Shown: positions 2,214-26,580 of the stretch, in pieces
Numbering within the stretch: position 1 is the stretch's first letter
How the letters are laid out: every line of letters begins with the position of its first letter
Source: an uncultured Gammaproteobacteria bacterium
Lineage (GTDB): Bacteria > Patescibacteriota > Patescibacteriia > UBA9934
Assembly: GCA_964355955.1 (NCBI GenBank)
Contig: CAYHFQ010000012.1
Location: 1-31,292, forward strand
Reading direction: 5' to 3'
Length of the DNA stretch: 31,292 nt
Notes under the pieces: generated by a model
Seen by the model: the letters and a program-made list of their open reading frames with translations, nothing else
Databases searched by the model: none
What the model was told of the DNA's origin: nothing
Translations under genes and position numbers: made by a program

Positions 2214-3431
2214 ATGGATTTTATGCGTGGTCGAGAATTTTCGGGGTATAAGATACCAGAGCATCTGGTTAGACCGTCAAAGGTAGAGATAGATACCGCT
2301 GGGACTGATTTGGCGAATTTGGAAGTTTTAAAGCAACGAGCATTGGTTTCCGAGCCGATTGGGGCAGAAACCTGGGGTTTGGTACTGCCAAAAGGGAAGA
2401 CTTATACGACTGGAGCCGGTTTGGATAATATGTTGTTTGTGGCGCGGGCGCATGAAAGATTGATTGATGTGGCGCAATTAAATACTCAGCAATTGCAGCG
2501 ATTGCTGGAGATGGCCGAGCAGTTACAGCAGGTTTATAAGCAACAAGAAGACCCTAATAATCCGTTAATTTTGCAAACGGTGGCGTTGAATTATCACGCT
2601 AATCCAGTAGCGAGAGATGTTTTTAAGAAAAAGCTAGCGGCCCAAACTTTAAAAGATTTACACTTTCATGTTGTTGGGTTTAGGGCGAGTGATGTGGAAG
2701 GTGAGAAAAAGTTAGAGCGAGAGCAGGTGACTAAGCAAGATTGGCGTGATATTCACGACCCGTTTTTGAAGGTGACAGAAAGATTATGGGCTCAGCCAGC
2801 GGTGCGTGCTAGTCTCATGGAGAACTTACAGATTCTGCGACCGGTAGAACAGGCTGATTTAGCTGGAGTTAATTTTTCTGTGCTACCCGATGAAATAACT
2901 TCACCTGAGTTAGCTAATGACTTGCAGACACTGCATAATAATTATTTGGCCGTATACAAACGAATAGCTGGATTGTTTGTGGATTTGACTAAACAGGATG
3001 CGACTGGGATGCCGCAGCTTTTAGCTGAAGACCAGCGAGTTGAAGCGATTGAGCGGTTTAGGCAAGAATTATTGGCAGAAGCACCAGACGAGGCTTCGAT
3101 TCAGATTTTGTTTAAATGGTTATTGCGGATGAGTAAGATATTAGTTTCGGGTGAGAAGATACGTGATAGCGTGCAGGCAGCAAAGGATAAAACTGTATTT
3201 ATTCGGGACCCGGCTTACACTATGTCGTTAACGCGAGAGTTGGGGAGTGATCAGGTGCTAGTAAATTTAGCACCACGTATATTGTCGACGGGAAACTTTT
3301 TAGCGGCCCTTGGTTTGCATCGAGTGATGGGCGGGGAGGTGACGGCTGAGTGGTTGGCAGAGAGGGAGAAGAATGAGCAGGCGATTGTGAGTCATTTTGC
3401 GGATGAGCGAAGGGAGCTGGCGGCGAAATAG
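2214..3431 (+). CDS. hypothetical protein (405 aa), family not recognised
   Basis: Long ORF with normal composition, followed by an intrinsic terminator. The only motif I noticed is LHFHVVG, a weak HIT-like His-x-His pattern, which is not sufficient for a call. Confidence 0.6.
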   Translation: MDFMRGREFSGYKIPEHLVRPSKVEIDTAGTDLANLEVLKQRALVSEPIGAETWGLVLPKGKTYTTGAGLDNMLFVARAHERLIDVAQLNTQQLQRLLEMAEQLQQVYKQQEDPNNPLILQTVALNYHANPVARDVFKKKLAAQTLKDLHFHVVGFRASDVEGEKKLEREQVTKQDWRDIHDPFLKVTERLWAQPAVRASLMENLQILRPVEQADLAGVNFSVLPDEITSPELANDLQTLHNNYLAVYKRIAGLFVDLTKQDATGMPQLLAEDQRVEAIERFRQELLAEAPDEASIQILFKWLLRMSKILVSGEKIRDSVQAAKDKTVFIRDPAYTMSLTRELGSDQVLVNLAPRILSTGNFLAALGLHRVMGGEVTAEWLAEREKNEQAIVSHFADERRELAAK

Positions 3432-3448
3432 AAGTTTGGTAAAAATAA

Positions 3449-3484
3449 CAAACCCGGCTGCGAGAACAGTCGGGTTTATTTACT
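3449..3484 (+). terminator. bidirectional rho-independent terminator; left border of island 1
   Basis: aacccggctg-cgagaa-cagtcgggtt stem (one G.T pair). It is followed by tttattt on + and preceded by aaaaataaca, which gives a T-run on the minus strand. Confidence 0.7.
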
Positions 3485-3540
3485 ATCATGAGCTTGGTAG
3501 GCAGAGGAGAGAGTCAACCGAGTACCTGGCTGATGATAGG

Positions 3541-3681
3541 AGTTTTGAGCTTTTGAGGGCTCGAGACTCTCGAACGGCGTAATGGGGGATTACGAAGTTG
3601 GAGAGTCCCCGCAAGCTAGCTGTTGTGCACAGAAAGTTGCGGGACGTTGGTGTGTCCCCCGGAGCAAGCTCGACGGGGGAC
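3541..3681 (-). repeat. island-1 intergenic hairpin module, copy 1 (downstream of the 168-aa gene)
   Basis: Minus strand carries GTCCCCCG..CGGGGGAC, then GTCCCGCAA-N22-TTGCGGGGAC, then GACTCTC-N29-GAGAGTC, then CCCTCAAAAGCTCAAAACTCC. Confidence 0.6.
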
Positions 3682-3693
3682 TGGTGGTGGTTT

Positions 3694-4200
3694 CTACCCG
3701 AGGATCGGGTAGGGGTCGGCCGGGTCGTCCCAGGCAAAAACGGGGATGCCGTTTCGCCTGGAGGAGGCGTTCTTGCCGAGGCGCATGAGTTGCACCCCGG
3801 AAAGGGTGAACCTGAGCTTGTGCTCCGTCCCTCCTCCGCCGTAGCCACCACTGCCCGGGGTGGGGTGGGACTCGAAGGTCCAGTCGATCGGCCCGGCGAA
3901 CCGGGCGACTTCCTGGATCCATTCTGCCGCGGCTTCCTCCGAGTGGAGCTTGACGCTCCCCTTGAGGTGGGCGATGCTCACCTGCTGGCCGTAGTGGCCA
4001 CGGGAGGTGACAATCTTGAGCGCGAAGTGCGCTCTAGGAAAGTGGACTTTGGCCTTCCCAGGCAGGCCCTCTTCATCGTCCCCGACGACGTCGGGGACCT
4101 CGATGCTCATGGGAGCACCGAGGTTTTTGTTGAGGAGCTGCGAGAGCTCCCCGACCAGGAAACGGGCGATGAAGGGGAGGTGGATGCGGATGGAAGCCAT
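3694..4200 (-). CDS. hypothetical protein (168 aa), island-1 orphan
   Basis: ATG 4200 has GAAGGAG 6 nt upstream. Third codon positions are almost all G/C. The + ORF 3598..4272 is a shadow. No family recognised. Confidence 0.65.
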   Translation of the reverse strand: MASIRIHLPFIARFLVGELSQLLNKNLGAPMSIEVPDVVGDDEEGLPGKAKVHFPRAHFALKIVTSRGHYGQQVSIAHLKGSVKLHSEEAAAEWIQEVARFAGPIDWTFESHPTPGSGGYGGGGTEHKLRFTLSGVQLMRLGKNASSRRNGIPVFAWDDPADPYPILG

Positions 4201-4317
4201 GATTGCTCCTTCGTGCATTTATGCACAGTGAGCGGCGCCGGGAGTGTTCCCGGTTCATGTATGCCGACCTGAGTAAATTAAACTCAGGATTTCGCGCTTT
4301 TGACGGGATGTCTAAGT

Positions 4318-4397
4318 GCTTTCGAAAACCACAATTAAATAATTATGGGTTTTGAGAGTCCCCGCAAGCTAGCTGTGTGCCAGAAAGTTTGCGGGAC
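4318..4397 (-). repeat. island-1 intergenic hairpin module, copy 2
   Basis: Minus strand carries GTCCCGCAAA-N21-TTGCGGGGAC, then TCTCAAAACC..GGTTTTCGA. The stem is near-identical to copy 1. Confidence 0.6.
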
Positions 4398-4503
4398 GTG
4401 TCCACCGGAGCTGTGCAGCTCGGATGGTTGGATTTGCTGGACGATGCCCGCCAGCGACGGAGTAGACTATGACTGGTCTACCAGCAGTGTTTGGTTGTCG
4501 GGG

Positions 4504-6528
4504 CTAGCGGCGACCGAACTTGCCGAGGAGCAGGGCACGCTCCTCAGCGGACATGGCCCGAGGGGCGGGCTTCTCGGCCGGGGTGGCGGGGGTGGCTTTT
4601 GGCGCGACCGGCTTGCCGAGATTCCAGCCGTTGCCGACGGGGGGTGAGACGGTTCTGCCGGACATGCCGGTTTGACCGTCCCACTCCTTGGCGAGGTTCT
4701 GCTCGAGGTTGGCAACGGTTGCCCGTTGTGCCTCGGTCAGTCCCGCCAGGGGGAGCTTGACCACCTCGAAGCGGTGGTCCGCGGCGCGGTAGTTCTTGAA
4801 CCACCGCAGTGCCAACTCGCCGGCCTCGACTTGGTGCCAGGTGCGACCCTGGTCACCGTCGCGGAGCGAGCCGTCGGGGCGGACAACCCAGGCTTCAACG
4901 AACTTGTCGTCGGTCCTGTACCAGTTGCCGCCGGTGACCTTGAAGTTGGAAAGCGTTCCCGCCTTCGCTTCCTGGGCTCGCTCGGCTGCGACTCGCGCCT
5001 CTTCGGCAGCGACTCGTTCGGCCTCAACCCTGTTGGCTTCGCGTTGGGCCAATTCCTTTGCTTCGCGCTGGGCTTTGAGGGCTTCGAGGTCTGGCTTGAC
5101 CACCGTCTTCCAGTTCTCCAGTTTGACCCAGAGGCCGGAGACAGTTGTCTCGGTCGGCTCAGACTTACCCTCCCACTGGAGGTTGAGCGTCACGCCGTCC
5201 TTGCGGATGGCGAGCAACTCTCCCTCGTGGGTCTGCTCGAGGCTCATCCGCCCATCGTTCCGGAAGAACTGATGGACGGTGACGACCCGGCCGATCCACT
5301 CTGCGGGGATGGCGGCAAAGGGTGCCTGGCCCTTGGCAAGGTATGCCGCGGGATTGGCCGCGGCGTCCCGAGCTTGCCAAAGCTCGGTGGGCTCCGTGGA
5401 AAGGGTGCCACCCTCCCCACAGGAAATTGCCCAGCCCGGATTCCTGTAGGAACCGACGTTCAGGCTTTCACCTGCACGCAGTACCCACAACTCATCCGGA
5501 GTGGACTCGGCATGCCCCGCGGTGCCACCCGCGAAGTTGCCGGCGGCGAGACACGTCGGGTTGCCCCGAAGTATCTCGACCGATCGTGCGACCCGGTTGG
5601 TCAGGGGCGGAGCGATGCGAATGAGCACCGCGCCCGCCTCGATCTGCCCGCTCTGGGTGAGCCCGTAGATGACTTTCGTCTTTTTGGGTTCCCACGAGGG
5701 GGCTGCGACGGCCTGCTCCGAGAGCTTGGCAATCGCGACCGCCTCGAGCCGCTCACCGGGGGTGAACCCGATGATGGCGACCTGGGCCAGGACGCGACCG
5801 CGACCGGTCTCACCGAGCACGACTGCTGGGCCGGTGACGCCAGTCTTCACGCTGATGCCGGGGCGGATTTCGCCGCGTCCGACATAAGTGAAGGTCGACA
5901 TCGACCCGAAGGCCAGGTCGAGCGCTTGGCCTGTGGTTTCGGTCTCGGCAATCACTGCCTCGACCTGGGCCACGGCCACGAGCTGCTCGTAGTCCGCCCA
6001 GGGGCTGGTCTTGACGACCCCGGCTTCATCCACCCAGAGGGCGAAGGAGCTGGTGCCGTTGACCTCGCGGCTGGGGCGAACCTTCAAGACGTCGCCGGGG
6101 CGCATCTTGATGATGCCGTCGTTCCAGCTCCCGATGCGCCCGGCATCGCCGAATGCACCGAAACCGGAGATGAGGGTCTCCGGTGCGCCGGCCACGATGG
6201 ACCAGACGCCGCTTCCGCCGCGGATGTAGCTGGTGTAGGTGTTTACCCTCACCAAGCAGTCCCAGCCGCCGCCGGTGGTGGGGCGCTCCAGGACGTAAAA
6301 CGTCTTGGCGGGCTTGCCGCCGGACGCGGGGAGAGAAACCTTGCGAGGCATCGCCTCCAGGATCTTTCCGTCGACAATGTCGGCAGGGACTCGACGATCG
6401 AGCCCCACCTTTTCATATTGCCTCCCGCGACCTTCTTCGCCCAAGTAGATGACGGCGCCGAGGCGCTCGTCGGACTTGGTGGAAATCCCGGAGGAGAGGC
6501 GGCCTGCGGCCCAGGTGTAGGTTCTCAT
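4504..6528 (-). CDS. hypothetical protein (674 aa) with central Ala/Glu/Arg coiled coil, island-1 orphan
   Basis: ATG 6528 has AGGAG 7 nt upstream and GC3 is very high. The layout is a beta-rich N-terminal ~470 aa, a heptad-like KAQREAKELAQREANRVEAERVAAEEARVAAERAQEAK segment, a C-terminal ~150 aa, and a Pro/Lys/Ala tail. The 654-aa + ORF 4672..6636 is a shadow. Confidence 0.75.
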   Translation of the reverse strand: MRTYTWAAGRLSSGISTKSDERLGAVIYLGEEGRGRQYEKVGLDRRVPADIVDGKILEAMPRKVSLPASGGKPAKTFYVLERPTTGGGWDCLVRVNTYTSYIRGGSGVWSIVAGAPETLISGFGAFGDAGRIGSWNDGIIKMRPGDVLKVRPSREVNGTSSFALWVDEAGVVKTSPWADYEQLVAVAQVEAVIAETETTGQALDLAFGSMSTFTYVGRGEIRPGISVKTGVTGPAVVLGETGRGRVLAQVAIIGFTPGERLEAVAIAKLSEQAVAAPSWEPKKTKVIYGLTQSGQIEAGAVLIRIAPPLTNRVARSVEILRGNPTCLAAGNFAGGTAGHAESTPDELWVLRAGESLNVGSYRNPGWAISCGEGGTLSTEPTELWQARDAAANPAAYLAKGQAPFAAIPAEWIGRVVTVHQFFRNDGRMSLEQTHEGELLAIRKDGVTLNLQWEGKSEPTETTVSGLWVKLENWKTVVKPDLEALKAQREAKELAQREANRVEAERVAAEEARVAAERAQEAKAGTLSNFKVTGGNWYRTDDKFVEAWVVRPDGSLRDGDQGRTWHQVEAGELALRWFKNYRAADHRFEVVKLPLAGLTEAQRATVANLEQNLAKEWDGQTGMSGRTVSPPVGNGWNLGKPVAPKATPATPAEKPAPRAMSAEERALLLGKFGRR

Positions 6529-6604
6529 GATGAACTCCTAGCTCGTAGATCGAGCTGGTGTGAGGCTAGGCCTCGTGGTGAGCGTCGACGCAGGATGCGA
6601 AGAA

Positions 6605-6680
6605 CGACCCTCGAAGTTCACGAGATGAACTCATGAGTTTTGAGAGTCTCCGCAACCAGCTAGTGCTAGTGGTTGCGGGA
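6605..6680 (-). repeat. island-1 intergenic hairpin module, copy 3
   Basis: Minus strand carries CCGCAACCACTAG-ca-CTAGCTGGTTGCGG (13-bp stem), then GAGACTCTCAAAACTCATGAGTTCATCTCGTGAACTTCGAGGGTCGTTC. Confidence 0.6.
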
Positions 6681-6726
6681 TGGTGCATCTGCTCATAACC
6701 CCGAGCGGACGGAGGGGCGAATTTAC

Positions 6727-7068
6727 CTAACGAACCTCCTTGTAGGAGATCGACCAGCTAGAGCGGCTGGTGGTGGACTTCCTGATCTCGGCGGTGCCGA
6801 GCAGGATGAACTTTTCGGTCTGGCCTGTGGGCCAGTAACCGTACTCAAGATTCTCCTCGGCCGCGAAGCCGAAAGACGGATCTTTTTCGGCCAGCCTTAT
6901 GAGCGGGCCGACGAGGTCGATGGTCACGACTAGCCTGGCAATGCCGGGGAGGTCGCAACCGTCGAGGGTCTCGAATACAAATGGCGCCAAAGGCGCCGTT
7001 TGTTTGTCGTAGTTACATCGGCGAATGCCGACGTCGTGTTTCCGTTGTCGTAATTTTTCGCAAGCCAT
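6727..7068 (-). CDS. hypothetical protein (113 aa), island-1 orphan
   Basis: Internal ATG 7068 has AGGAG 7 nt upstream. The track start 7161 is a GTG inside the conserved hairpin. GC3 is high. No family recognised. Confidence 0.55.
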   Translation of the reverse strand: MACEKLRQRKHDVGIRRCNYDKQTAPLAPFVFETLDGCDLPGIARLVVTIDLVGPLIRLAEKDPSFGFAAEENLEYGYWPTGQTEKFILLGTAEIRKSTTSRSSWSISYKEVR

Positions 7069-7126
7069 AGTGGCTCCTGGGCTGAGGTTAGATTGTCCCT
7101 CTAACTTCTCCAGTAATAACGACTGA

Positions 7127-7305
7127 AGAGTTCGGAGGGATCGGGAAACTTGGTGGTGCACACCAGAGGTTTCCCGGGAGAGGGTGAGTGAAGTCAGCCA
7201 GTGACTCCGTGCCGTTCTGTCTAGCTCAGAAGACGTTGGCTAGAAGACCCGCGTGGCCTTTGGCGACTATTTATGTAAGCGCTGTCGTCGGCGCTGTGAA
7301 CCTTG
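7127..7305 (-). repeat. duplicated leader block, copy A (hairpin module copy 4 plus 113-nt conserved block 7193-7305)
   Basis: Hairpin TCGGGAAAC..GTTTCCCGG lies at 7141-7177. The block 7193-7305 matches 8501-8613 at 109/113 positions (my count; all four differences are transitions). Confidence 0.85.
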
Positions 7306-7689
7306 CCGATAGTTGACTCCGTAAGGTTGGGGTGGAAAAGCTGAAGGACGTCAGCTAACGCGATGAAGCAGTCATCTCTGGTCTCGCTGGTATCGAAACG
7401 GTGTAGCACCAGTGACCGTTGGGCCTTAACTACTTTTTATACCGCGCCGTAGTCAGCGCTTGGGTGTCGACGATTGCGACCTCCTTTGGGTTGGGGTTTT
7501 GGTATTGAGAATCAGGAAGATCCTCGATTGACGACTCGAATGTTCTCGGAATAGAGATTCAAGTGGTCGATAGAAGACCCCACCAACGCGATGTGCGTCG
7601 AGCTGGTGGGAAATTCGTGCTGTGACTTTGTTGTGGTTGGGGTGTGATGAACTTGAATAGGAGTCGTCACGTCTCCTGGGAGGCTGCGC

Positions 7690-8289
7690 CTACTGCGCGG
7701 TGGCCTCCTGGAGGGAGGCGAGCTCGGCCGTGAGCCGGGTCACCTCCTTCTTCGCGGAGAAGCCGCTGTACCCCTTTCCGCCCGTGAGGACGAGCTTGCG
7801 CTCGGCCTCGACCAGTGCGGACTTGGCTGCCGCGATCTTGCCGGCTGCCTGGTTCCTCGCGGCCAGTTTTTCGGCAGCGGCGAGGGCCGCCTCCTTCTCG
7901 TCGCGGCGGGCGACCGCGACCTTATGGTCGGCGCGGGCGGCCGTGAGGGCCGCTCCCACCTTGTCGGCGGGGACGGTGCCCACAGAACGGGGAGTGTTGC
8001 AGCACCGATACCAGCCGAGTTCCGTTTCCGCGTTGCGGAGCTTACGCTCCGCGACCAGAACCTGGGCCTCGGCGGCCGCGACCTGCGCGACCGGGGCCGT
8101 GAGGCGGTCCTCTACCGCCTCCGAAAACTCCACCTCCGCGGCCGTGACGGCCGCCTCGAGGTCGAGGGTCTTGGCCGCCGCCGCCACGCGGCGGTTGATC
8201 TCGGCCTCGAGGACGGCGATTTCGCTGGCGAGCAGGGACAGGAGGGGAGCCGCGACGATGGGGGAGGTGCTGGAGATAGATGCGGTCAT
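7690..8289 (-). CDS. Ala-rich coiled-coil protein (199 aa), island-1 orphan
   Basis: ATG 8289 has AGAGGG 5-6 nt upstream and GC3 is high. Long heptad-like Ala/Glu/Lys/Arg segments are interrupted by GWYRCCNTPRSVGTVPADK. The + ORFs 7700..8305 and 7924..8301 are shadows. Confidence 0.65.
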   Translation of the reverse strand: MTASISSTSPIVAAPLLSLLASEIAVLEAEINRRVAAAAKTLDLEAAVTAAEVEFSEAVEDRLTAPVAQVAAAEAQVLVAERKLRNAETELGWYRCCNTPRSVGTVPADKVGAALTAARADHKVAVARRDEKEAALAAAEKLAARNQAAGKIAAAKSALVEAERKLVLTGGKGYSGFSAKKEVTRLTAELASLQEATAQ

Positions 8290-8419
8290 GGGACCCTCTG
8301 ATTGAACGTTGAATGCAGTTGGACTGACGCTAGACATCGAACCGGCCAAATTGCCGATCACAACATTTTGCGTAAATCGTTCTGCGAACGCCCTCGAACT
8401 TCACGATTGGATCAATCAT

Positions 8420-8613
8420 GAGTTTTGAGGGAATCGGGAAACTTGGTGGTGCACACCAGAGGTTTCCCGGGAGATATCGAGTTGGCGCTCGATGCGCAGA
8501 GTCAGTCAGTGACTCCGTGCTGTTCTGTCTAGCTCAGAAGGCGTTGGCTAGAAGGCCCGCGTGGCCTTTGGCGACTATTTATGTAAGCGCTGTCGTCGGC
8601 GCTGTGAACCTTG
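8420..8613 (-). repeat. duplicated leader block, copy B (hairpin module copy 5 plus 113-nt conserved block 8501-8613)
   Basis: Hairpin at 8434-8470 is identical to copy A. Relative to A there is a 28-nt versus 13-nt indel between hairpin and block. The sequence continues as CCCTCAAAACTCATGATTGATCCAATCGTGAAGTTCGAGGGCGTTC on the minus strand. Confidence 0.85.
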
Positions 8614-9369
8614 AAGATGACTTTCTCCAGTGGGCGTATATTGCCCGGTGATGATCTCGCTTCCCGCAGCCTGGATTGACACAGATATGTGCCGTCGCGC
8701 TGGCTGGTGGAGTTAGAGATCGAGTGCTGTGTCGACGTCGACGTTGTACGGGCAGGATTGCCGGGTACTGTCAGCCGTGACTCTGCAGCGCTCTCGAACG
8801 TCACCAGCGAGTGATGAAGTTGGAGAGCCCCTGAAGTAGATGCGAGGCATCACTTCAGGGCTAGGTCCCGTCAACACGAGGGCTGACGGGACACGAGTTA
8901 CGTTGTTCGTAACGTGAAGTATAATTTCCACGGGTTCCTAATGGACGGGCTCGAGAGTTGGCGAATCGGCGCAGGGCGTCGTCGTCAGTCGAGTAACCGT
9001 CGCCGGAAGGGCGCAGATACTTCTGTGTGTTAACTCTTCAGTTGTGAAGGTTCAGTTCCTTTGCCACGGTGGCTAAGCCTTGCGGCTGTTGGTAAGGACT
9101 GCAGGAGGTTCAAAACTGTTTTGAACTCCCGCGCACTCATTACCACGGTTATTTTCTCTGTTGTAACCGGGGGAAGTCTGGTGTGTTGGCCGAGCGTACT
9201 CAGTTACCACTTGCCAGGTTCCGACGTTCCGGCGGAGCCGGAGTGAGAACATAGGTGCTATCGAGTAAAAGTCTCTCTCACCCACTGTGGGGAATTGGCC
9301 TCGAGGGACCAGCTTTTGCTCAATGTCAGCTATGTGAGGGCCTTTTGTTCTCAAGCCTTGCGGCGAGAA
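8614..9369 (-). other. ORF-free, hairpin-dense segment (candidate long structured leader or ncRNA)
   Basis: No ORF over 93 aa on any frame, and none has an SD or island-like GC3. Many perfect stems are present: CCCTGAAGT/ACTTCAGGG 8829-8860, GTCCCGTCA/TGACGGGAC 8866-8891, GTTACG/CGTAAC, and GGTTCAAAAC/GTTTTGAAC ~9107-9127. Two GCC-GCAA-GGC GNRA-capped hairpins lie at 9079-9088 and 9356-9365. Confidence 0.35.
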
Positions 9370-9596
9370 GCAAAAAGGCAGGATTCAGTCTATCTAGTGT
9401 GGGGTTGCCCACGGAGAGAGAATGAATCCTGCCTTGGCAAACGCTACCTATGTAGGCTTGTCTAGTGTGGTACGAAGTAGAGCTGAGCTCACTTCATACC
9501 TGTGCCCCGTTTTTACCGGCACCCGTACTCTCTCTTAAGTTGTAAGGAACTAGTTTCTTGTAGGGCTGTTGGGCTTTCTCGTTCCCCTCAGCTTGT
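9370..9596 (-). ncRNA. candidate ~230-nt small RNA or leader bounded by a consensus promoter and an intrinsic terminator; class not recognised
   Basis: The predicted TSS is ~7 nt after the TATGAT box. The body contains stems GGTAtGAAGT..ACTTCgTACC and GTGCC..GGCAC. The 3' end is the terminator at 9371-9434. There is no ORF. I could not match it to SRP, 6S, tmRNA, T-box or the common riboswitch cores I know. Confidence 0.45.
9371..9434 (-). terminator. intrinsic terminator or attenuator
   Basis: Minus strand has a 12-bp stem AGGCAGGATTCA (9434-9423) / TGAATCCTGCCT (9387-9376). It encloses an inner GTGGG-caac-CCCAC hairpin and is followed by TTTTGCTTCT. Confidence 0.55.
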
Positions 9597-9602
9597 AGAC
9601 AC

Positions 9603-9631
9603 ATCATACCATTTTCTACGACTTCTGTCAA
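9603..9631 (-). promoter_or_regulatory. near-consensus sigma70 promoter pointing into island 1
   Basis: Minus strand has TTGACA (9631-9626), a 17-nt spacer GAAGTCGTAGAAAATGG, then TATGAT (9608-9603), with a TGg extended -10. Confidence 0.7.
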
Positions 9632-9690
9632 CTGCTGTGTGGCATGAATGCTAGAATAAGGCTAAGATTAGCTTATAAATTATCCACACC

Positions 9691-9725
9691 CTGTCATTTA
9701 CATTATGACAGTAAGGTGAAATAAT
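9691..9725 (+). promoter_or_regulatory. putative TrmB-gene promoter (TTTACA-17-AATAAT with TGa) overlapped by palindrome CTGTCAT-N7-ATGACAG
   Basis: The 21-nt palindrome at 9691-9711 covers the -35 hexamer at 9697-9702. It lies ~65 nt from the divergent island-1 promoter. Confidence 0.4.
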
Positions 9726-9790
9726 AGAGCCGGATAGGGTTAAATCAGGGCGGGGGACGGTGACCCCGCCTATTAAAGAGAGGCTATAAT

Positions 9791-10540
9791 ATGTATCAGG
9801 AAATACTGACTAAACTCGGGTTAAACGCGAATGAGGCCCATATTTACGAGCTTTTGCTGACTAAAGGCCGGACTAAGGCCCGGGATTTGCTGACGGATAG
9901 CGGCTTAGGCCGGGGCAACCTCTACAATGTGCTGACTAGTTTGGTCTCCCAGGGCTTGGCGACGGTGACAGAAGGGAAGCAGCAGATATATGAAGCGGCG
10001 GAGCCATCGCATCTCTCAACCCTCGTCGACGACCAGAAACGCCGAGCTGATCGCTTGGCGCAGGAGTTCCAGGGGGAGTTGCCGAAGTTGCTCTCGACGT
10101 TTAATTTAACGACAGGGAAGCCGGCGATTCAGGTGTTTGAGGGGATAGAGGGTGCAGAAATGGCTTTGATGGAATCATTGCAGGCTTCGAAGATAATTTA
10201 TACTTACGTTGATCCATCTACTTTTACCGAAGAAATTAAAGACTTGAACAGACGTTATGTACCTCAGCGTGAAAAGAAGGGAATACAAAAAAAGATTATA
10301 TTATGTGATAGTGAATGGGCACAAAAACATGCGTTAGCAGCTACTACTCAATTAACAGAGTATTTGTTAATTAAAGATTTCCCGCCAATGCACGATGTAG
10401 CCGTGGAAATGTATGATGATACAATTTCATATTTGGGTTTACGCGATGGAAAGACTATTTCTGTGATTGTGCATGATCCAGCAATAGCAAGAATGCATAT
10501 CGCTCAGTTTGAGTTTTTATGGAAAACCTTTAAACATTAA
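9791..10540 (+). CDS. TrmB-family transcriptional regulator
   Basis: N-terminal winged HTH LGLNANEAHIYELLLTKGRTKARDLLTDSGLGRGNLYNVLTSLVSQGL is typical of TrmB (PF01978-like). AGAGAGG lies upstream of the ATG. Confidence 0.75.
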   Translation: MYQEILTKLGLNANEAHIYELLLTKGRTKARDLLTDSGLGRGNLYNVLTSLVSQGLATVTEGKQQIYEAAEPSHLSTLVDDQKRRADRLAQEFQGELPKLLSTFNLTTGKPAIQVFEGIEGAEMALMESLQASKIIYTYVDPSTFTEEIKDLNRRYVPQREKKGIQKKIILCDSEWAQKHALAATTQLTEYLLIKDFPPMHDVAVEMYDDTISYLGLRDGKTISVIVHDPAIARMHIAQFEFLWKTFKH

Positions 10541-12975
10541 GTAGCCTTCTTTTCAAAAACAAAGGCACGCTTTGTCTTGTCTTTGTTTGGCATGTAAAAG
10601 CGTGTTGCTACAAAACCTTTGTCAAACATTTGTTTGCAATACTCAACCATATCTGAAGATTGTGACGGAAGAGAGAAAATGACCGGTGTTTGTTTATTTT
10701 TTGTCATCTCTGATTTTTCTTGATATTTAGTATTTTCTTTGTCATTACGACGTATTTTGAAGCGCAGAGTATTTTGACCAACTGAATCTACGCCGTTGAT
10801 AACGAATTTTTGGTCTTCTACATATGAAGTGCCAGCATCAAGGCCGATAGCGAAATCTGCTAATATGGTGTGTTTTTCGGCTAATGGCTTGAGCACTTCG
10901 TAGAAAAGTTGTTTGCCAAGACCAGAATCTTGAAGTGCTGGATCTACATTCAACGATCCTGCATAAAGTGCGTTTGGTTCTAAGCCTGGTACGTCGTCGA
11001 TACGGATAAAAGCCGCAATTTTGTCATGATATAAAATCATGGTGAAGGTTGAAGGAACATCTCCGGCGAGCGCGTGTTCCATTTTTTCACGTACTCGGGT
11101 AAATTCTGAAGATGACTTCATTTTCCAATTGTCATCAAAGATACGGTACAGATCCTTCTGTTCAAGATCTGTAAGCTCTACTCCTCGACGTTGCAGGAAA
11201 TTAACCCCCTGTAGATTTTCGATAGATAATTGACCTTCTTTGCCAACTGTACGGAGCGAAGAACCGAAAAGAGCCAGGTCGGTATTGCGACGAGCGAGGT
11301 CTTGTTTGAAGGTATCGAGCGTGGGTTTATCTTGTAGCGTGGCGGTGCGGGCTACGTCCTCCATGGCTGTGATGGCGCTGGCGACACGGCGGGTGAGTTC
11401 GTATTTGGCAACGCGACCTTGCTCGGGGGTCATTTGGCCTAAAGTGACGGCGGCAGCGACTTCGGCTAGCATTTGGCGACGGGTGCTACCAGCTTCGATG
11501 ACAGATTCGGCCAGTAAGGTGGCTTCGCTGGTGCGGAGTTCGGCAGCTACACGGAGATATTCGCGAGCGATATCTGGGAGGTCGGCGATTTCAGCGATGC
11601 TTTGGAGACCGGGTTCACCAATCTCTTTGGTGAGAGTGATAATTTGTTCGGTGTAGGGTGCGAGTTTGCTGATATTGCGGCGGAAGTGTTCGCGGGTAGC
11701 TAGGGGGAGGGCTTGGTCGACGTCGAGGCTGGCAGCACGGAGTTCATTATTGAAACCAGCCCAGACTGTTAGATTGTCGATAGCAGCTTTTAGTTCAGGG
11801 TTTTGGGCGGTGTCGACTAAATCGAGTAGGGTTGATTGGGTGAGTTCGACAGGTGCAGCGTAGCTGAGGGCGCCTTGGCCGTTATCGTAAGTTGTGAGCC
11901 GGGCGTCGCCTTTACGGAAGCGATTGATGAGAGAAATAGGCGTGAGGACGCCGTCTTCGTCGAGGACGATGGCCGACTGTTCGGGCGTGAGCTGCTCAAC
12001 CCGGACGGTGTGACCACCGAAGGCTCGACCAAGATTGTGTTTGACGCCGTCTATAGAGAGTAGACCTTTTGATGTGACAAGGCTTGCTTCGAGGCGGGTG
12101 CGAGTTTGGTGACGAGAGGCGGTGAAGTCGCTGTCACGAAGGAGACCTTCGGTGAAGAGGGTGGGGCAGTATTCTTTGAGGGCGGCGAGGGGGCGATCGA
12201 AGAGTAGTCCAGTGGATTTTTCGTTGCCTAGAGCTAGGCCTGGTTGAGCTCGAAACCAGTCGGCTGTTAGGGTATGACGTTTACCATCGTGATAGCGAAC
12301 CTCGAGTTTACCTTGGGCGTTGCGCTTAGCGTCACCAAATTTGGGGTTATATAAAATGGCCGCGACGGCAGTTTCTAAGGCTTTAGAATTATCGAGGGTA
12401 CGAGGAGCTGTAGCTGTTTTAATATCTTTTTTAGATAACCAGTCGGGTAATTCCCAGTAGCCTAAATGAAAGTCAGCGGCCTTGATGGCGTCGACGTCAA
12501 AGGCTTGTTCTTTGGTTTGGGGAGAGTAGACGAGTTGTTTAGCACCGTTTTCTGGTTTGTTGCGTAGTGTAACCGGTTCATCGCCAAAAGCATTAGCTAG
12601 GTAGTCGCCGCGGGTCCGTGAGAATGATTGGCCGTTTTCTGGGACAAAATCGGCGAATTTATGTTTGTTAAAGCGTTCTAGAGAAAAACCGTTTTTTGTT
12701 AGGAATGTGCCTTGCGTCAAGCGATGTTTAACCTGAGCAGAAAATTCAGTACGGGTTATTTTACCGGTTAAGATTTTGGCGATGTCTCGACCTTGAGGGA
12801 CTTCGCCACGCTCTACAGCGGCTTGAAGAAAATGAGTGAGTTCGGTGATGACCTCGGGGCCATAGTCGGCGGCGAGAGCATCAAACATTTGGCCAATATC
12901 TTTGGCTTTAGGTTTCTCTGGAGTGGGAGCGCGTTCTGCGCGACCAAAGCGCTGAGTACCGACCCATAATTCCAT
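10537..12975 (-). CDS. large hypothetical protein (812 aa) with C-terminal GNAT-like acetyltransferase fold motif
   Basis: The C-terminal ~170 aa contain AFIRIDDV..LYAGSLNVDPALQDSGLGKQLFYEVLKPLAEKH, which resembles GNAT motif A (Q/R-x-x-G-x-G/A). I do not recognise the N-terminal ~600 aa. Confidence 0.6.
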   Translation of the reverse strand: MELWVGTQRFGRAERAPTPEKPKAKDIGQMFDALAADYGPEVITELTHFLQAAVERGEVPQGRDIAKILTGKITRTEFSAQVKHRLTQGTFLTKNGFSLERFNKHKFADFVPENGQSFSRTRGDYLANAFGDEPVTLRNKPENGAKQLVYSPQTKEQAFDVDAIKAADFHLGYWELPDWLSKKDIKTATAPRTLDNSKALETAVAAILYNPKFGDAKRNAQGKLEVRYHDGKRHTLTADWFRAQPGLALGNEKSTGLLFDRPLAALKEYCPTLFTEGLLRDSDFTASRHQTRTRLEASLVTSKGLLSIDGVKHNLGRAFGGHTVRVEQLTPEQSAIVLDEDGVLTPISLINRFRKGDARLTTYDNGQGALSYAAPVELTQSTLLDLVDTAQNPELKAAIDNLTVWAGFNNELRAASLDVDQALPLATREHFRRNISKLAPYTEQIITLTKEIGEPGLQSIAEIADLPDIAREYLRVAAELRTSEATLLAESVIEAGSTRRQMLAEVAAAVTLGQMTPEQGRVAKYELTRRVASAITAMEDVARTATLQDKPTLDTFKQDLARRNTDLALFGSSLRTVGKEGQLSIENLQGVNFLQRRGVELTDLEQKDLYRIFDDNWKMKSSSEFTRVREKMEHALAGDVPSTFTMILYHDKIAAFIRIDDVPGLEPNALYAGSLNVDPALQDSGLGKQLFYEVLKPLAEKHTILADFAIGLDAGTSYVEDQKFVINGVDSVGQNTLRFKIRRNDKENTKYQEKSEMTKNKQTPVIFSLPSQSSDMVEYCKQMFDKGFVATRFYMPNKDKTKRAFVFEKKAT

Positions 12976-12977
12976 AC

Positions 12978-13973
12978 CTACTTCTTTACCTTGCGTTTCA
13001 TGACTTTCTGCACAGCCTTGGCGATCCAGGGGGCGGTGAGATGGTAGTGTTCCAGGAGTTCGCGGGGGGTGCCGGATTGGCCGAAGTCGTCCTGGAGACC
13101 GATACGCTCGATGGGCACGGGGTGAACGCTCGAGAGAAGTTCGCAGATGACGCTGCCGAGACCGCCGGCGGCTTGGGCTTCTTCTACGGTGACGATGGCA
13201 CCACAGTCTTTGGCGGCGGTGATGATGGTCGCTTCGTCGAGGGGTTTAATGGAGGGGCAGTTGATGACGCGAACGTCGAGGCCGAGCTTTTCCAGGCTAC
13301 GGGCGGCGAGCAAGGCTTCGTGGACTAGAATGCCGCAAGCGATGATGGCGACGTCGCTACCTTTGCGGAAGATTTGGGCTTGGCCGACCTCGAAAGGGGT
13401 GGCGTCCGTGGTAAAGACGGGGCTTTCACTGCGGGCAAAGCGGATGTAAACGGGCCCGTCGATTTGCGCGGCAGCGAGGGTGGCTTTGCGGGTTTCAATA
13501 GCGTCGCACGGGACGAGCACTGTCATGTTGGGGAGAACGCGCATGAGGGCAATGTCTTCCGTCATCTGGTGGGTAGCGCCGTCTGGGCCGACAGAAACGC
13601 CAGCGTGTGCGCCAGCAATTTTGACGTTGGTTTTGGGAATACAGATAGTGGTGCGAATTTGTTCCCAGTTGCGGCCAGGGGAGAAGCAGGCGTAGCTGGC
13701 AATAAAGGGGACTTTTCCGGCCAAGGCTAGGCCAGCGGCGATGGCAGCCAAGGATTGTTCGCTGACGCCCATTTGGATGAAGCGTTCCGGGTAGGCAGTC
13801 TTGAAGCCGAGGACGCGAGTGGATTCGGTTAGGTCGGCTGAGAGGGCGACGATACGCTCATCTTCCTTGCCGGCAATAATTAAACCATCGCCGAAGCCGT
13901 GGCGGGTGGGCTTTTGCTCGACGTCGGCCGAGAATAATTTGCGGGACAAACGCATTAACGAATTGATGGCCAT
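12978..13973 (-). CDS. transketolase, C-terminal (pyrimidine-binding plus C-terminal domain) subunit
   Basis: From ATG 13973: MAINSLMRLSRKLF..PTRHGFGDGL..ERFIQMGVSEQSLAAIAAGLALAGKVPFIASYACF..GPDGATHQ. This is the classic split-transketolase second half. The track N-terminal extension overlaps the NUDIX gene. Confidence 0.85.
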   Translation of the reverse strand: MAINSLMRLSRKLFSADVEQKPTRHGFGDGLIIAGKEDERIVALSADLTESTRVLGFKTAYPERFIQMGVSEQSLAAIAAGLALAGKVPFIASYACFSPGRNWEQIRTTICIPKTNVKIAGAHAGVSVGPDGATHQMTEDIALMRVLPNMTVLVPCDAIETRKATLAAAQIDGPVYIRFARSESPVFTTDATPFEVGQAQIFRKGSDVAIIACGILVHEALLAARSLEKLGLDVRVINCPSIKPLDEATIITAAKDCGAIVTVEEAQAAGGLGSVICELLSSVHPVPIERIGLQDDFGQSGTPRELLEHYHLTAPWIAKAVQKVMKRKVKK

Positions 13974-14455: not shown

Positions 14456-14468
14456 ATTTATAGATAGT

Positions 14469-14491
14469 AGATTGTAGAAGGTAGAAGGTAG
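14469..14491. repeat. left arm of the inverted repeat flanking the four-helix-bundle gene
   Basis: agattgtagaaggtagaaggtag is made of GTAGAAG units. It matches the reverse complement of 14867-14889 at 21/23 positions (my count). Confidence 0.75.
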
Positions 14492-14493
14492 GT

Positions 14494-14847
14494 TTAGAGG
14501 GTTATATTGTTGATGAAAGAGTTTAACATGCGCATTGTTTCACTGAGTAGTTCCTCGATCCGTTGTTTTGTGTTTTTTGATAAATACCCGAAATCTTTTG
14601 CTAGAATTAATTGTGTTTCTAATTCAGCTCCCGATCCGTAAGCTATGTAAAGAAATTTTCTGAAGTCTTTTTGACTTCCTCGTCGTGATCCTTCTGCAAT
14701 ATTACTTGGGATAGATATTGAAGCACGTCGCATTTGAGAAGTTAGTCCAAATCTTTCATGATGAGGAAAGGTGTTCGTCAACTGATAAACTTCGCGACAA
14801 ACATCCATGCTCTTTTGCCAAATCAGTAATTCATTATAGGCAGCCAT
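14494..14847 (-). CDS. four-helix-bundle protein (the family formerly called 23S rRNA intervening-sequence protein)
   Basis: 117 aa. LIWQKSMDVCREVYQLTNTFPHHERFGLTSQMRRASISIPSNIAEGSRRGSQKDFRKFLYIAYGSGAELETQL is the characteristic family pattern. Confidence 0.85.
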   Translation of the reverse strand: MAAYNELLIWQKSMDVCREVYQLTNTFPHHERFGLTSQMRRASISIPSNIAEGSRRGSQKDFRKFLYIAYGSGAELETQLILAKDFGYLSKNTKQRIEELLSETMRMLNSFINNITL

Positions 14848-14866: not shown

Positions 14867-14889
14867 CTACCGTCTACATTCTACAATCT
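14867..14889. repeat. right arm of the inverted repeat flanking the four-helix-bundle gene
   Basis: The reverse complement reads agattgtagaatgtagacggtag. Confidence 0.75.
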
Positions 14890-14895
14890 CATATT

Positions 14896-15461: not shown

Positions 15462-15615
15462 TTCGCTCGCAACTGACGGATTATCCTATTCCTAGCTGCG
15501 CCTCGTCAACCGTACCAGCCGTCTCACCTCGTATGACTCGGGCGCTGGTACAGGGCCGAGGCTGGCGTCGTCATAGGACAACCCGCCAGCTGCTCGCTCC
15601 TACAAGGCTCAGGCT
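15462..15615. repeat. palindromic intergenic repeat family, copy 2 (5'-truncated)
   Basis: Same core as copies 1 and 3, in the same orientation, in the divergent tdk/GT4 intergenic region. Confidence 0.8.
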
Positions 15616-22440: not shown

Positions 22441-22630
22441 GTCTTTGCGAGCATCAGCGAAGCAATCAAGGCGTATCGCTCGCGATTGCCACATCTCCTA
22501 TTCCTAGCTGCACCTCGTCAACCGTGCCAGCTGGCTCACCTCGTCTGACTCGGGAGCTGGCACAGGGCCGAGGCTGGCGTCGTCATAGGAGATGTGGCAA
22601 CCGCTGCCCCACTCTACAAGCCTCAGGTTC
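22441..22630. repeat. palindromic intergenic repeat family, copy 3 (best outer stem)
   Basis: The 13-nt arms CCACATCTCCTAT / ATAGGAGATGTGG enclose the conserved core. It starts 10 nt from the GT4 ATG. Confidence 0.8.
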
Positions 22631-25864: not shown

Positions 25865-26013
25865 TCGGCCACCTCCTCTTCGGGGCTACAGGCGTCCCAG
25901 TCGTCGAGGGTCAACTCGTGAACTCGGCCATCGGCGTGGTGGATGGTAGCCTGGCCGCCTGGTCCGACTACGACCAGGTAGCTGGTCGACGACTTGATCT
26001 TGTCGTCGCTCAT
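25837..26013 (-). CDS. small acidic hypothetical protein (58 aa), island 2
   Basis: ATG 26013 overlaps the upstream stop as ATGA (26013-26010), which suggests translational coupling. GC3 is high. Confidence 0.5.
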   Translation of the reverse strand: MSDDKIKSSTSYLVVVGPGGQATIHHADGRVHELTLDDWDACSPEEEVAECALLLTTG

Positions 26014-26528: not shown

Positions 26529-26580
26529 GGGCGCCTCCGAAAGGGGGTGAGGGGTGGGTGGTGAATTTAGGGAGGGAATG

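Follow-up and report, generated by a model that had tools for sequence, protein, structure and literature searches.

A conserved, GC-elevated Patescibacteria locus that may form a leader-gated operon processed at RNA modules

Region 3450-9631 of the window (the whole stretch of 31,292 nt analysed) is best read as the version, in this ultra-small bacterium, of a locus conserved among Patescibacteria (CPR), not as a recent foreign insert, and its sequence suggests a leader-gated operon whose RNA would be processed at intergenic modules. We give this reading a probability of roughly 0.55. The plan of the locus comprises, 3' of a leader, one gene for a conserved protein of ~700 aa and lineage-specific ORFans, all on the same strand, GC-elevated and led by Shine-Dalgarno (SD) sites. 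In the window, a consensus promoter of host type probably drives this island as a single transcription unit, which has the following genes and signals:

9791-10540, plus strand: divergent gene of a TrmB-family regulator, 249 aa (Pfam TrmB HTH, E=1.7e-15)
9603-9631, minus strand, into the island: near-consensus sigma-70 promoter with extended -10 (TTGACA-17-TG-TATGAT; 11/12 match)
9366-9596, minus strand: structured leader RNA of ~230 nt (MFE -86.8 kcal/mol, z=-5.0)
7690-8289, minus strand: Ala-rich coiled-coil ORFan of 199 aa (ORF and SD site)
6727-7068, minus strand: ORFan of 113 aa
4504-6528, minus strand: gene of the 674-aa anchor protein (33 homologues; AlphaFold pLDDT 83.8)
3694-4200, minus strand: strict ORFan of 168 aa
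3450-3477, both strands: terminator hairpin closing the unit (11-bp stem, then a T-run), common to the convergent 405-aa gene

The four minus-strand ORFs described in the first-pass annotation (199, 113, 674 and 168 aa) are present at those lengths, the 199-aa one reaching 223 aa if counted from a GTG further upstream instead of the ATG, and both the promoter and the terminator that it had proposed were confirmed. It had placed none of the proteins in a family; likewise, Pfam, PHROGs, NCBIfam and PADLOC returned zero matches, and none of the four falls in a curated family. The 199-aa protein has no family match and no homologue in related loci. The 168-aa protein matched only itself among 5.8 billion proteins and, therefore, no donor can be named for it. 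Since the three small ORFs lack homologues, their coding status relies on periodicity and SD sites only. A plus-strand ORF of 654 aa (4672-6636) was rejected as a shadow ORF such as GC-rich DNA produces: the opposite minus frame has homologues, a confident AlphaFold model and GC3>GC1>GC2 periodicity.

The 674-aa protein is a member of a large unannotated family, with at least 1000 cluster representatives at E<=1e-3 and 546 at E<=1e-10. It contains two tandem beta-rich domains of ~185 aa, with GRGR and GAFGDAGRIG motifs and an internal duplication. Besides these, it has a third domain of beta type, a coiled coil and a C-terminal beta/alpha module, as well as a Pro/Ala linker and, at the end, an amphipathic helix. 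Full-length homologues occur in MAGs of Paceibacterota, Parcubacteria, Saccharibacteria and Doudnabacteria, and were not found in IMG/VR. On large phage (IMG/VR) contigs, the N-terminal domain exists as a protein of its own, adjoined in one of them (L008) by a helicase gene; another helicase gene adjoins the homologue in a 3.7-Mb genome (L007), where the neighbours are small ORFs, a tRNA, DEAD/HA2 helicases and a Gad2-domain gene. Other proteins have the C-terminal module fused to DExH/HA2 helicases. These fusions, together with the GRGR motif, point to a probable association of the anchor protein with nucleic acid, of which RNA seems the likeliest. With the N-terminal domain on phage contigs and the C-terminal module in helicases, the virus-derived, structural or scaffold-like nature first suggested for the coiled-coil and large beta-rich proteins may apply.

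Comparison with other CPR genomes, as the first-pass annotation had advised, revealed the anchor gene, the TrmB gene and the promoter in synteny, whereas the ORFans of the island were not shared. In 10 distinct Patescibacteria loci, a divergent TrmB-family gene precedes the anchor gene by 0.7-9 kb, and an extended -10 promoter of the same type is found at the same position in each of the eight TrmB-linked loci examined (window/L001, L004, L006, L015, L016, L017, L018 and L020). Of the loci having several kb of upstream sequence, about half had no TrmB detected in it; divergence may hide it. Between genomes, identity is 36-55% for the anchor protein and 23-42% for the adjacent TrmB; an anchor about as diverged as its neighbour fits long co-residence. 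Gene content shows rapid turnover between lineages. In the window, the TrmB gene has its own promoter-like site (TTTACA-17-AATAAT, 9697-9725), back to back with that of the island. It resembles TrmB-family regulators in its winged-helix domain but no sugar-metabolism genes lie nearby, and regulation of the island by TrmB is suggested by synteny only. Chimerism at the junctions where it had been contemplated, ~3486 and ~9600, is unlikely: the former is crossed by an independent Logan assembly (L002), and the latter is supported by the TrmB synteny kept in the relatives.

The island was first singled out by its composition and translation signals, which are confirmed with some qualifications. 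In 500-nt windows, GC is 0.52-0.68 over 3501-9500 against 0.38-0.61 for most of the backbone, and GC3 reaches 0.84, 0.80, 0.72 and 0.89 in the 168-, 674-, 113- and 199-aa genes, against 0.31-0.73 in backbone genes. G3 (0.31 versus 0.14) and T3 (0.09 versus 0.19) also differ from co-oriented backbone genes. However, C3 is equal (0.51 versus 0.53) and, on the main codon-usage axis, the island clusters with ordinary minus-strand genes. The distinctive SD usage was borne out: sites GAAGGAG, AGGAG, AGGAG and GAGGG lie 4-6 nt 5' of the four island ATGs, with a predicted anti-SD duplex of <=-6.3 kcal/mol in 4/4 genes, whereas only 4/16 backbone genes reach <=-5 (Fisher p=0.014); many backbone genes have a -10-like box immediately 5' of the ATG. 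A second region (26010-27483) has the GC3 and SD features of the island too.

Across genomes, island GC exceeds that of the flanks in 10/10 loci tested (by 0.08-0.19, mean 0.13; Wilcoxon p=0.002) and scales with it (r=0.84), a constant offset and tracking that a fixed high-GC donor would not give. Since rpoB and rpoC in L006 have GC at backbone level, the excess is not general to well-expressed core genes. It appears to be a property of the locus kept in every lineage, for which selection on RNA structure or stability and recombination-linked GC bias are candidate causes.

The leader carries a GAGAGAG box (9528-9535) and ends in a terminator made of a long hairpin (inverted repeat with arms 9435-9415 and 9395-9375, and CUCUCUCC inside at 9420-9413) followed by a T-run. 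It had no Rfam match. Across loci, the module of a GAGAGAG box and a large-loop CUCUC terminator was found 12 times in sense and twice in antisense orientation (p=0.013). In L018 it is present at both island ends, and the copy that follows the island appears to have a -10 box of its own; L030 has a variant without T-run, and the module is not universal. The order of strong promoter, structured leader of ~150-230 nt with intrinsic terminator, and long operon is that of known leader-gated systems, such as lambda PR'-tR' with Q, LoaP- and EAR-type leaders and riboswitch attenuators, although the window has no identified Q, NusG paralogue or known riboswitch aptamer. To our knowledge, the conserved GAGAGAG box with a CUCUC terminator loop has no described counterpart.

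Downstream of the leader, every island gene is bracketed by tandem-hairpin elements (A-F), two of which overlap a duplication of ~190 nt. The elements are scored with R1, a covariance model of them:

8789-8860, minus strand: element F, hairpin 1 at 8860-8828 and hairpin 2 at 8827-8791, in the ORF-less leader (pattern and fold; 50.4 bits)
8430-8618, minus strand: ~190-nt repeat copy 1, including hairpin 1 of element D
8389-8474, minus strand: element D, upstream of the 199-aa gene (DNA fold z=-5.8; 57.2 bits)
7137-7310, minus strand: ~190-nt repeat copy 2, including hairpin 1 of element E
7095-7181, minus strand: element E, upstream of the 113-aa gene (DNA fold z=-5.0; 42.7 bits)
6606-6679, minus strand: element C, ~80 nt 5' of the 674-aa gene (DNA fold z=-4.4; 53.8 bits)
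4319-4395, minus strand: element B, between the 674-aa and 168-aa genes (fold z only -1.9; 54.1 bits)
3565-3643, minus strand: element A, after the last gene (DNA fold z=-4.7; 51.6 bits)

R1 found these six, which score 43-57 bits and all lie on the sense strand, and no others in the 31 kb; fold z-scores are -4.4 to -5.8 for 5/6 elements. Their base is conserved (CUCUC-n-AAC...GUU-n-GAGAG) and the inner stem covaries: 88.5% of the cells are paired and 10 cells have compensatory changes, a number reached by 0/500 shuffles. A U-G pair, possible on the sense strand only, is kept in 5/6 copies. The ~190-nt copies are paired by direct repeats of 95% (D2) and 98% (D9) identity. The first reading, which saw no flanking direct repeat, was correct for the flanks but had overlooked these internal repeats, both the six elements and the duplication. 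Searches of other CPR loci and of the closest relative (72% protein identity) found no member of this sequence family; the intergenic DNA of that relative is not alignable with that of the window.

The slot of element C, upstream of the anchor gene, holds a hammerhead ribozyme in relatives. Type-III hammerheads were found in their loci 12 times in sense and never in antisense orientation (p=0.0005). Most of them lie 70-130 nt 5' of the anchor gene or flank it, with cores on both sides in L032; in L016, Rfam Hammerhead_3 scored 27 and 21.9 bits, below the Rfam gathering threshold. Relatives resemble hammerhead-punctuated bacterial and phage operons, with cores CUGAUGAG...CGAAAC between same-strand genes, and the window elements fill the same slots. 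They differ in being built of two hairpins in tandem, in which few unpaired bases are conserved; they have no hammerhead core and match no Rfam ribozyme, and any self-cleavage is putative. From position only, we infer that they are the counterparts of the hammerheads; alternatively, they may act as terminators, as stabilisers or as sites of protein binding. The early operon of phage T7, a polycistronic array with a strong promoter and intercistronic RNase III processing hairpins, offers another likeness: one strong promoter, cistrons separated by irregular hairpins with internal loops, and 3' hairpins that could stabilise upstream mRNAs. However, the window locus is chromosomal and of CPR type, its hairpins come in tandem pairs with a base motif unrelated to T7 sites, and RNase III cleavage is putative.

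Smaller hairpins lie at the SD sites of two genes:

6529-6585, minus strand: 5'-UTR of the 674-aa gene, GCTCAC...ACGAGC-TAGGAG, hairpin overlapping the SD (fold)
4205-4233, minus strand: short hairpin before the SD of the 168-aa gene, GCUC-AC-UGUGCA-uaaa-UGCACG-AA-GGAGC, 3' arm overlapping the SD (fold z=-4.3)

Thirteen relatives have the motif GCYC-AC-GCC...GGC-AM-GRGC just 5' of the SD, with compensatory changes in 5/11 pairs; the copy before the 674-aa gene of the window aligns poorly to it. In L016, the architecture seen before the 168-aa gene precedes each island gene.

Recent horizontal capture of the four-gene module from a high-GC donor (e.g., an actinobacterial host) behind a resident promoter, as initially speculated, would explain GC and GC3 well over those of the flanks, an SD use unlike that of the backbone and three ORFans among four proteins. 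Likewise, a G3 double that of co-oriented backbone genes, with weaker strand skew, is expected for unequilibrated DNA. This origin is nevertheless very improbable, being contradicted by the CPR homologues, by the synteny of anchor gene, promoter, leader and TrmB neighbour over divergent CPR genomes, by an island GC that tracks host GC, and by an anchor as diverged as TrmB; in addition, C3 and the main codon-usage axis are those of native minus-strand genes, and no donor homologues were found. As the first-pass annotation had noted, the window has no integrase or transposase and the island region no tRNA or flanking repeat. Since relatives of the N-terminal domain also occur on high-GC, possibly non-CPR contigs, an ancient transfer is possible. 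We find it very doubtful that the island is a decayed prophage, satellite or defence island with the 674-aa protein as a phage-derived or anti-phage factor. The stand-alone domain beside a phage helicase gene and the neighbourhood in L007 point that way, and bacterial hammerheads are often phage-associated, but neither the island proteins nor the helicase fusions match PHROG or PADLOC, the full-length family was not found in IMG/VR, structural, lysis and integration genes are absent, and the chromosomal position beside TrmB is conserved.

The hairpins themselves invite two other explanations. They might be attC-like recombination sites of a DNA-level cassette array (integron- or CALIN-like), exchanging ORFan cassettes through AAC/GTT boxes, with frequent recombination raising GC. 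Promoterless same-strand ORFans behind one promoter, elements equalling the genes plus spare ones, imperfect hairpins whose base (CTCTC-n-AAC...GTT-n-GAGAG) resembles R''/R' boxes flanking a variable centre, fast gene turnover, unalignable intergenic DNA and a 190-nt duplication terminating at a hairpin all recall such arrays. Yet a tyrosine recombinase is absent from the window and from annotated relatives, the boxes misfit RYYYAAC/GTTRRRY at purine/pyrimidine positions, typical attC sites are longer than the elements, the strand favoured by the conserved T-G pair is the sense (top) one although attC works via the bottom strand, and relatives have RNA-level elements, the hammerheads, at homologous positions; we regard this explanation as very unlikely. 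It is also unlikely that the genes are independent transcription units, with hairpins as terminators or attenuators and mRNA 3'-end stabilisers and the ~230-nt leader as a free-standing small RNA gene unrelated to them. The good intrinsic terminator of the leader, the second RNA module of L018 with its apparent -10 box and the GC-rich hairpin 1 after each stop codon would fit, but a single promoter-like site (9603-9631) was found on the island sense strand, hairpins 1 and 2 lack T-runs, and many genomes have the leader 5' of the island, in the same position and direction.

For the leader-gated, RNA-processed operon that we favour, a single transcript, control of read-through and RNA processing are all deduced from sequence. 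Transcription would start at ~9596 and, by default, stop at the leader terminator, releasing a short RNA; conditional read-through, possibly modulated by GAGAGAG/CUCUC pairing or by a TrmB-type protein, would open the operon. The polycistronic RNA would then be segmented and/or stabilised at the intergenic modules, by hammerhead self-cleavage in relatives and, in the window, either by a nuclease (of RNase III type or another) that acts on the tandem hairpins or by a catalytic motif so far unrecognised, while SD-proximal hairpins may tune the translation of each cistron. The locus would thereby supply its CPR cell with one conserved, probably nucleic-acid-associated protein together with a set of lineage-specific ORFans.

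The island between the terminator at 3450-3477, which was upheld by a terminator check, and the promoter at 9631-9603, which scores 11/12 and possesses the TG extension, carries the four open reading frames placed there by the first-pass annotation:

7690-8289, minus strand: gene of the 199-aa protein
6727-7068, minus strand: gene of the 113-aa protein
4504-6528, minus strand: gene of the 674-aa protein (anchor protein)
3694-4200, minus strand: gene of the 168-aa protein

As that annotation had claimed, the island is GC-rich (0.52-0.68 per 500-nt window across 3501-9500 vs 0.38-0.61 in most of the backbone, i.e., the window genes outside it). Its genes have a high GC3 (0.72, 0.80, 0.84, and 0.89 vs 0.31-0.73 in backbone genes) and are set apart by their Shine-Dalgarno (SD) use, with an SD-like sequence 4-6 nt before the ATG in all four (Fisher p=0.014); backbone genes mostly lack an SD, and in them the ATG instead follows immediately on a -10-like box. 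The four proteins gave no match in Pfam, PHROGs, NCBIfam, or PADLOC, which agrees with their description as members of no recognizable family, and the worry about a chimeric junction at 3486 was not borne out, as an independent assembly (L002) spans this position. Starts of backbone genes, for example those at 9791 (+), 14455 (-), 28265 (-), and 29300 (-), exhibit a TAnnnT -10-like box immediately 5' of the ATG and no SD, which suggests that many mRNAs of this genome are leaderless or have very short leaders. At 26010-27483 (minus strand), another SD-led array with high GC3 (0.76-0.86) was observed. It comprises three small ORFs of about 65, 131, and 172 aa, with signal-peptide or lipoprotein-like N-termini and no Pfam match, each with a copy of a structured ~100-nt repeat ahead of it (copy ends near 26528, 27078, and 27385), and it resembles variable surface lipoprotein families with a common 5' region.

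The foreign-composition signal noted in the first pass is real, but it does not correspond to an alien codon dialect; it is rather the native pattern exaggerated, with a weaker strand skew. Third-position strand asymmetry is extreme in the backbone (C3 0.53 and G3 0.14 in minus-strand genes, C3 0.14 and G3 0.38 in plus-strand genes), and the first axis of codon usage separates the strands, with the island genes grouping with ordinary minus-strand genes. The C3 of the island matches that of co-oriented native genes; compared with these neighbours, G3 is higher (0.31 vs 0.14), as are GC1 and GC2, and T3 and A3 are lower. GC skew on the plus strand is positive almost everywhere in the window. The most AT-rich window gene (14494-14847; GC 0.37, GC3 0.31) encodes a 23S-rRNA-IVP/bAvd-like four-helix protein and is bracketed by 28-nt inverted repeats (14464-14491 / 14867-14894, 86% complementary, with a related arm at 704-739), together with which it may form a small inserted cassette; no reverse transcriptase was found in the window. 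There is also a family of 130-nt intergenic repeats with 72-88% identity (542-671, 15464-15593, and 22476-22605), one copy of which has terminal inverted repeats (22482-22501 / 22585-22604) and, thus, may be a MITE-like element.

The neighbour at 9791-10540 (+), divergent from the island, encodes a regulator with an N-terminal TrmB winged-helix domain (PF01978, 57 bits vs a cut-off of 25.6). As in the window, a divergent TrmB-family gene lies 0.7-9 kb upstream of the anchor homologue in 10 distinct CPR loci, and a near-consensus extended -10 promoter faces the island in all eight TrmB-linked loci examined for promoters. An 812-aa GNAT-domain neighbour is also conserved in some loci. Between genomes, the anchor protein and the TrmB protein have similar identities (36-55% and 23-42%, respectively). 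Among MAGs, full-length anchor relatives were found under the labels Paceibacterota, Parcubacteria, Saccharibacteria, Doudnabacteria, and Patescibacteria; ~1-Mb genomes that bear the label Gammaproteobacteria, in our view wrongly, have them as well. The three small island proteins had no relative in any fetched locus (tblastn and blastp), with no homologue of the 168-aa protein among 5.8 billion sequences, and are lineage-specific. Island GC exceeded that of the flanks in 10 of 10 loci (by 0.08-0.19, mean 0.13, p=0.002; flank GC 0.33-0.53) and tracked it across them (r=0.84). In locus L004, small paralogous genes of low GC (3203-4045, 7395-7757, and 12894-13241) lie on the opposite strand amid the GC-rich island genes, and an intergenic repeat of the TTTGAGGACTTTGAGAAGAA type occurs in this island in eight copies.

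Recent transfer of the island from a high-GC donor, the origin suggested in the first pass, would account for its deviant composition (average GC 0.61 vs 0.50 in the flanks), as in a classical genomic island. However, the window contains no tRNA target, integrase, or transposase, as already noted in the first pass, no flanking direct repeats were found around the island, and the linkage of the anchor gene to a divergently oriented TrmB gene, seen in 10 separate CPR loci, is at odds with a patchy distribution. This synteny, the shared promoter type, the similar divergence, and the GC offset that follows the flanks fit a resident locus under a GC-raising regime of its own and do not fit a fixed high-GC import. 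We therefore consider recent transfer quite improbable, and the resident locus largely replaces the captured module. The GC excess may derive from selection on RNA structure or stability, or from recombination-linked GC bias in a fast-turnover region; high GC as a mark of high expression was rejected on the indirect test that rpoB and rpoC of locus L006 are at backbone GC.

The anchor protein is the conserved core of this locus. A word-indexed search retrieved 33 homologues and an exhaustive HMMER search at least 1000 cluster representatives at E≤1e-3 (546 at E≤1e-10), none of them annotated. Its AlphaFold model (pLDDT 83.8) predicts two tandem ~185-aa all-beta domains and a third beta domain, followed by a coiled coil of ~40 residues and a C-terminal module of beta/alpha type; a Pro/Ala linker, which is disordered, and a terminal helix complete the chain. 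Foldseek against PDB and BFVD found nothing at E≤1e-3 (the best matches being unspecific beta-propellers and small barrels), nor did a PDB sequence-profile search. C-termini in the family carry an amphipathic motif, L-AL+-KFG+K or DL--LFGG----RRR, possibly a membrane-binding or docking helix. The N-terminal domain occurs in many small proteins and alone as a ~180-aa protein on large IMG/VR contigs, in one locus (L008) beside a helicase gene. Proteins of 1070-1710 aa also end in the C-terminal module. The six of them that were scanned (P0152, P0156, P0161, P0163, P0165, and P0168) all have DEAD/DEAH-type helicase domains at the N-terminus, joined in most by Helicase_C or HA2 domains; PADLOC assigned them to no defence family, giving only weak generic helicase matches. 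In a 3.7-Mb genome (L007), an anchor homologue lies directly upstream of DEAD and HA2 genes. These helicase fusions and neighbours, together with a GRGR motif, suggest by association a nucleic-acid-related role for the anchor protein, perhaps with RNA as a guess, and the fusions represent the first functional handle on the family.

The RNA encoded by the island appears highly structured. Each gene is bracketed by tandem-hairpin elements, with an extra ORF-less segment between elements F and D, and a leader RNA follows the promoter:

about 9596 to about 9366, minus (sense) strand: leader RNA (fold z=-5.0)
9435-9415 / 9395-9375, minus strand: arms of the leader terminator hairpin, followed by a T-run (inverted repeat)
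8789-8860, minus (sense) strand: element F (covariance model)
8389-8474, minus (sense) strand: element D (covariance model)
7095-7181, minus (sense) strand: element E (covariance model)
6606-6679, minus (sense) strand: element C (covariance model)
4319-4395, minus (sense) strand: element B (covariance model)
3565-3643, minus (sense) strand: element A (covariance model)

Hairpin 1 of the elements is variable in sequence and paired in all copies; in hairpin 2, the base is conserved, with the order C(U/C)CUC, 1-2 nt, AAC ... GUU, 1 nt, GAG(A/G)G, and the paired interior varies. The covariance model matched exactly these six sites (43-57 bits, all sense) and no other in the 31 kb, with only weak matches in other loci. 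Pairing amounts to 88.5% with 10 compensatory cells, a level reached by 0 of 500 shuffles. A U-G pair is kept in five of the six copies, where the opposite strand would give a C-A mismatch. Hairpin 1 of elements D and E stems from a 190-nt duplication (7137-7310 / 8430-8618, 95-98% identity). As irregular intercistronic hairpins of 16 pairs each, with internal loops and covariation, the six elements resemble RNase III-type sites in structure. No covariance match was found to the self-cleaving families twister, twister-sister, pistol, hatchet, HDV-like, or hairpin (E≤1 over 3300-9900 and E≤10 over 8360-8900). At both gathering and permissive thresholds, the sole Rfam match in the window was the bacterial class A RNase P RNA at 25256-25640 (minus strand, 140 bits), outside the island. 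A generic scan for CTC...GAG hairpins was discarded, since GC-rich coding DNA made it far too unspecific. In IMG/VR, a search with the base motif of hairpin 2 yielded 36 stretches, not above a rough chance estimate, with the exception of one viral contig (L121, IMGVR_UViG_3300020578_000308). At 3600-5450 and ~7090, this contig carries 23-nt units, aatCTCTCaaacgaatgaagtat, with TATAAT-CTCTC inside, repeated in tandem. Every such array ends in ...AAGTTCGAGAG, the hairpin-2 base motif lacking a paired interior, and an ORF-poor stretch of 3.5 kb contains at least six units. Given their tandem 23-nt units, these repeats are probably a different element.

In the leader, a GAGAGAG box (9528-9535) is complementary to CUCUCUCC within the terminator, whose loop is unusually large and contains CUCUC. 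The same arrangement recurs in L004, L006, L015, L016, L018 (two copies, one on each side of the island), L020, and L023, in the order consensus promoter, 5' CAAGaUGAGa-like start, GAGAGAG or AAGGAGAGAG box (often within a hairpin loop), and large-loop CUCUC terminator; L030 has a variant form. Across loci, 12 modules are sense and 2 antisense. The leader matched nothing in Rfam, and its identification as 6S, SRP, or another known RNA was rejected for lack of Rfam support. L018 has two like-oriented copies of the 3' module (GAGAGAG box, AT-rich stretch, and CUCU-loop terminator), at 6040-6190 and 13080-13260 on either side of the GC-rich island, with 73% identity and compensatory differences; the two copies could be small-RNA genes or the footprint of island insertion or exchange.

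Relatives of the locus possess candidate hammerhead ribozymes. Cores of the form CUGAUGAG...CGAAAC were spotted in L016, and a core-plus-stem scan of all loci for type III hammerheads (defined by the core CUGANGA ... GAAA, stems I-III, and a UH cleavage site) gave 12 matches on the anchor-gene strand and 0 on the opposite one (p=0.0005):

L016, 8055-8109 and 9121-9197, sense strand: hammerhead candidates (L016 counts once among the 12)
L017, near 9110 and 9908, sense strand: two candidates
L020, near 7944 and 11140, sense strand: two candidates
L032, near 5518 and 7970, sense strand: two candidates
L014, L044, L051, and L054, sense strand: candidates
L011, sense strand: doubtful candidate

Further variants were recognized by eye in L030 and L064, and at least 10 loci have the core and stems. 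Since the Rfam Hammerhead_3 scores in L016, 27 bits (E=0.02) and 21.9 bits, are below the gathering score of 48.5, we take them as good candidates and not as proven ribozymes. They usually lie 70-130 nt 5' of the anchor ATG, a slot occupied in the window by element C, which ends ~80 nt from that ATG (6528) on its 5' side. The window itself had no core-plus-stem match, and Rfam on 8360-8900 was empty even at E≤10. Positional replacement of a hammerhead by another structured element is the type of lead that has previously yielded new ribozyme classes. In L032, the candidates flank the anchor gene; if both cleave, they would leave 5'-OH and 2',3'-cyclic-phosphate ends, in principle ligatable into a circle.

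Structured RNA also extends to the ribosome-binding sites. In the window, hairpins lie on or just 5' of the SD of the 674-aa and 168-aa genes. In 13 relatives, a 5'-UTR motif, GCYC-AC-GCC...GGC-AM-GRGC, directly precedes the anchor SD, with compensatory change in 5 of 11 pairs, and L016 has a short form ahead of every island gene; the window copy aligns poorly to the 5'-UTR motif. The 250 nt upstream of the anchor gene in the closest relative (72% protein identity) are unalignable except for the SD and spacer, yet a hairpin of different sequence still abuts the SD, suggesting that the intergenic RNA elements turn over fast and that their architecture persists.

Judging from these parts and their conservation, the locus would most likely work as follows. 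The strong promoter would fire and, given the attenuation-type order of promoter, structured leader, intrinsic terminator, and genes on the same strand, the leader terminator would act as a gate. Read-through RNA would span all four genes, as no second promoter-like site was found on the sense strand of the island. The intergenic modules would then cut and/or protect this RNA, in relatives via the candidate hammerheads and in the window via a nuclease that targets the tandem hairpins or via some unrecognized activity, and the SD-proximal hairpins would set translation. Control of the two divergent promoters probably falls to the TrmB-type neighbour.

Several other explanations have to be weighed against such a system. 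Same-strand ORFans with hairpins between them recall an integron- or CALIN-like DNA cassette array, a reading that we rejected and consider very unlikely: there is no IntI or other recombinase domain in the window or in annotated relatives, AAC/GTT occurs in three to four of the six copies but with flanking positions that misfit the RYYYAAC / GTTRRRY boxes of attC, and it is the top (sense) strand alone that can form the conserved T-G pair, whereas the recombinogenic strand of attC is the bottom one. A prophage or defence remnant, for which the viral contigs carrying the N-terminal anchor domain might speak and the empty PHROGs and PADLOC scans do not, seems very unlikely. Independent genes accompanied by a free-standing small RNA, a view compatible with the duplicated leader modules of L018 and less so with the single promoter-like site on the sense strand of the island, are doubtful. 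A bolder reading, which joins two ideas, is also improbable (about 0.12): the tandem hairpins (variable hairpin 1, then CUCUC-n-AAC...GUU-n-GAGAG with the conserved U-G pair) could represent a new type of RNA, self-cleaving, otherwise catalytic, or involved in processing, in place of the hammerheads of relatives, and the locus could be an unrecognized CPR-wide, leader-gated system in which a transcript is cut into cassettes, with rapidly invented ORFans and a conserved RNA-associated protein. Should the cassette segments have ribozyme-made ends, they might even circularize. The hammerhead link makes the hypothesis of processing at the intergenic modules directly testable.

Searchable literature on Saccharibacteria islands, Patescibacteria integrons, and CPR hammerheads contained nothing relevant, nor any description of the locus that we could find; the anchor family, leader RNA, 5'-UTR motif, and tandem-hairpin element appear undescribed. 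The locus is also a cautionary example, its foreign-looking GC, GC3, and SD use being a locus-specific property kept across lineages. CPR/Patescibacteria genomes are tiny and mostly uncharacterized. A locus kept across several of their classes, with its own composition, a dedicated regulator, promoter, and leader RNA, intergenic ribozymes or structured RNA, and a family of at least 1000 clusters annotated by nobody, offers a concrete target for their study.
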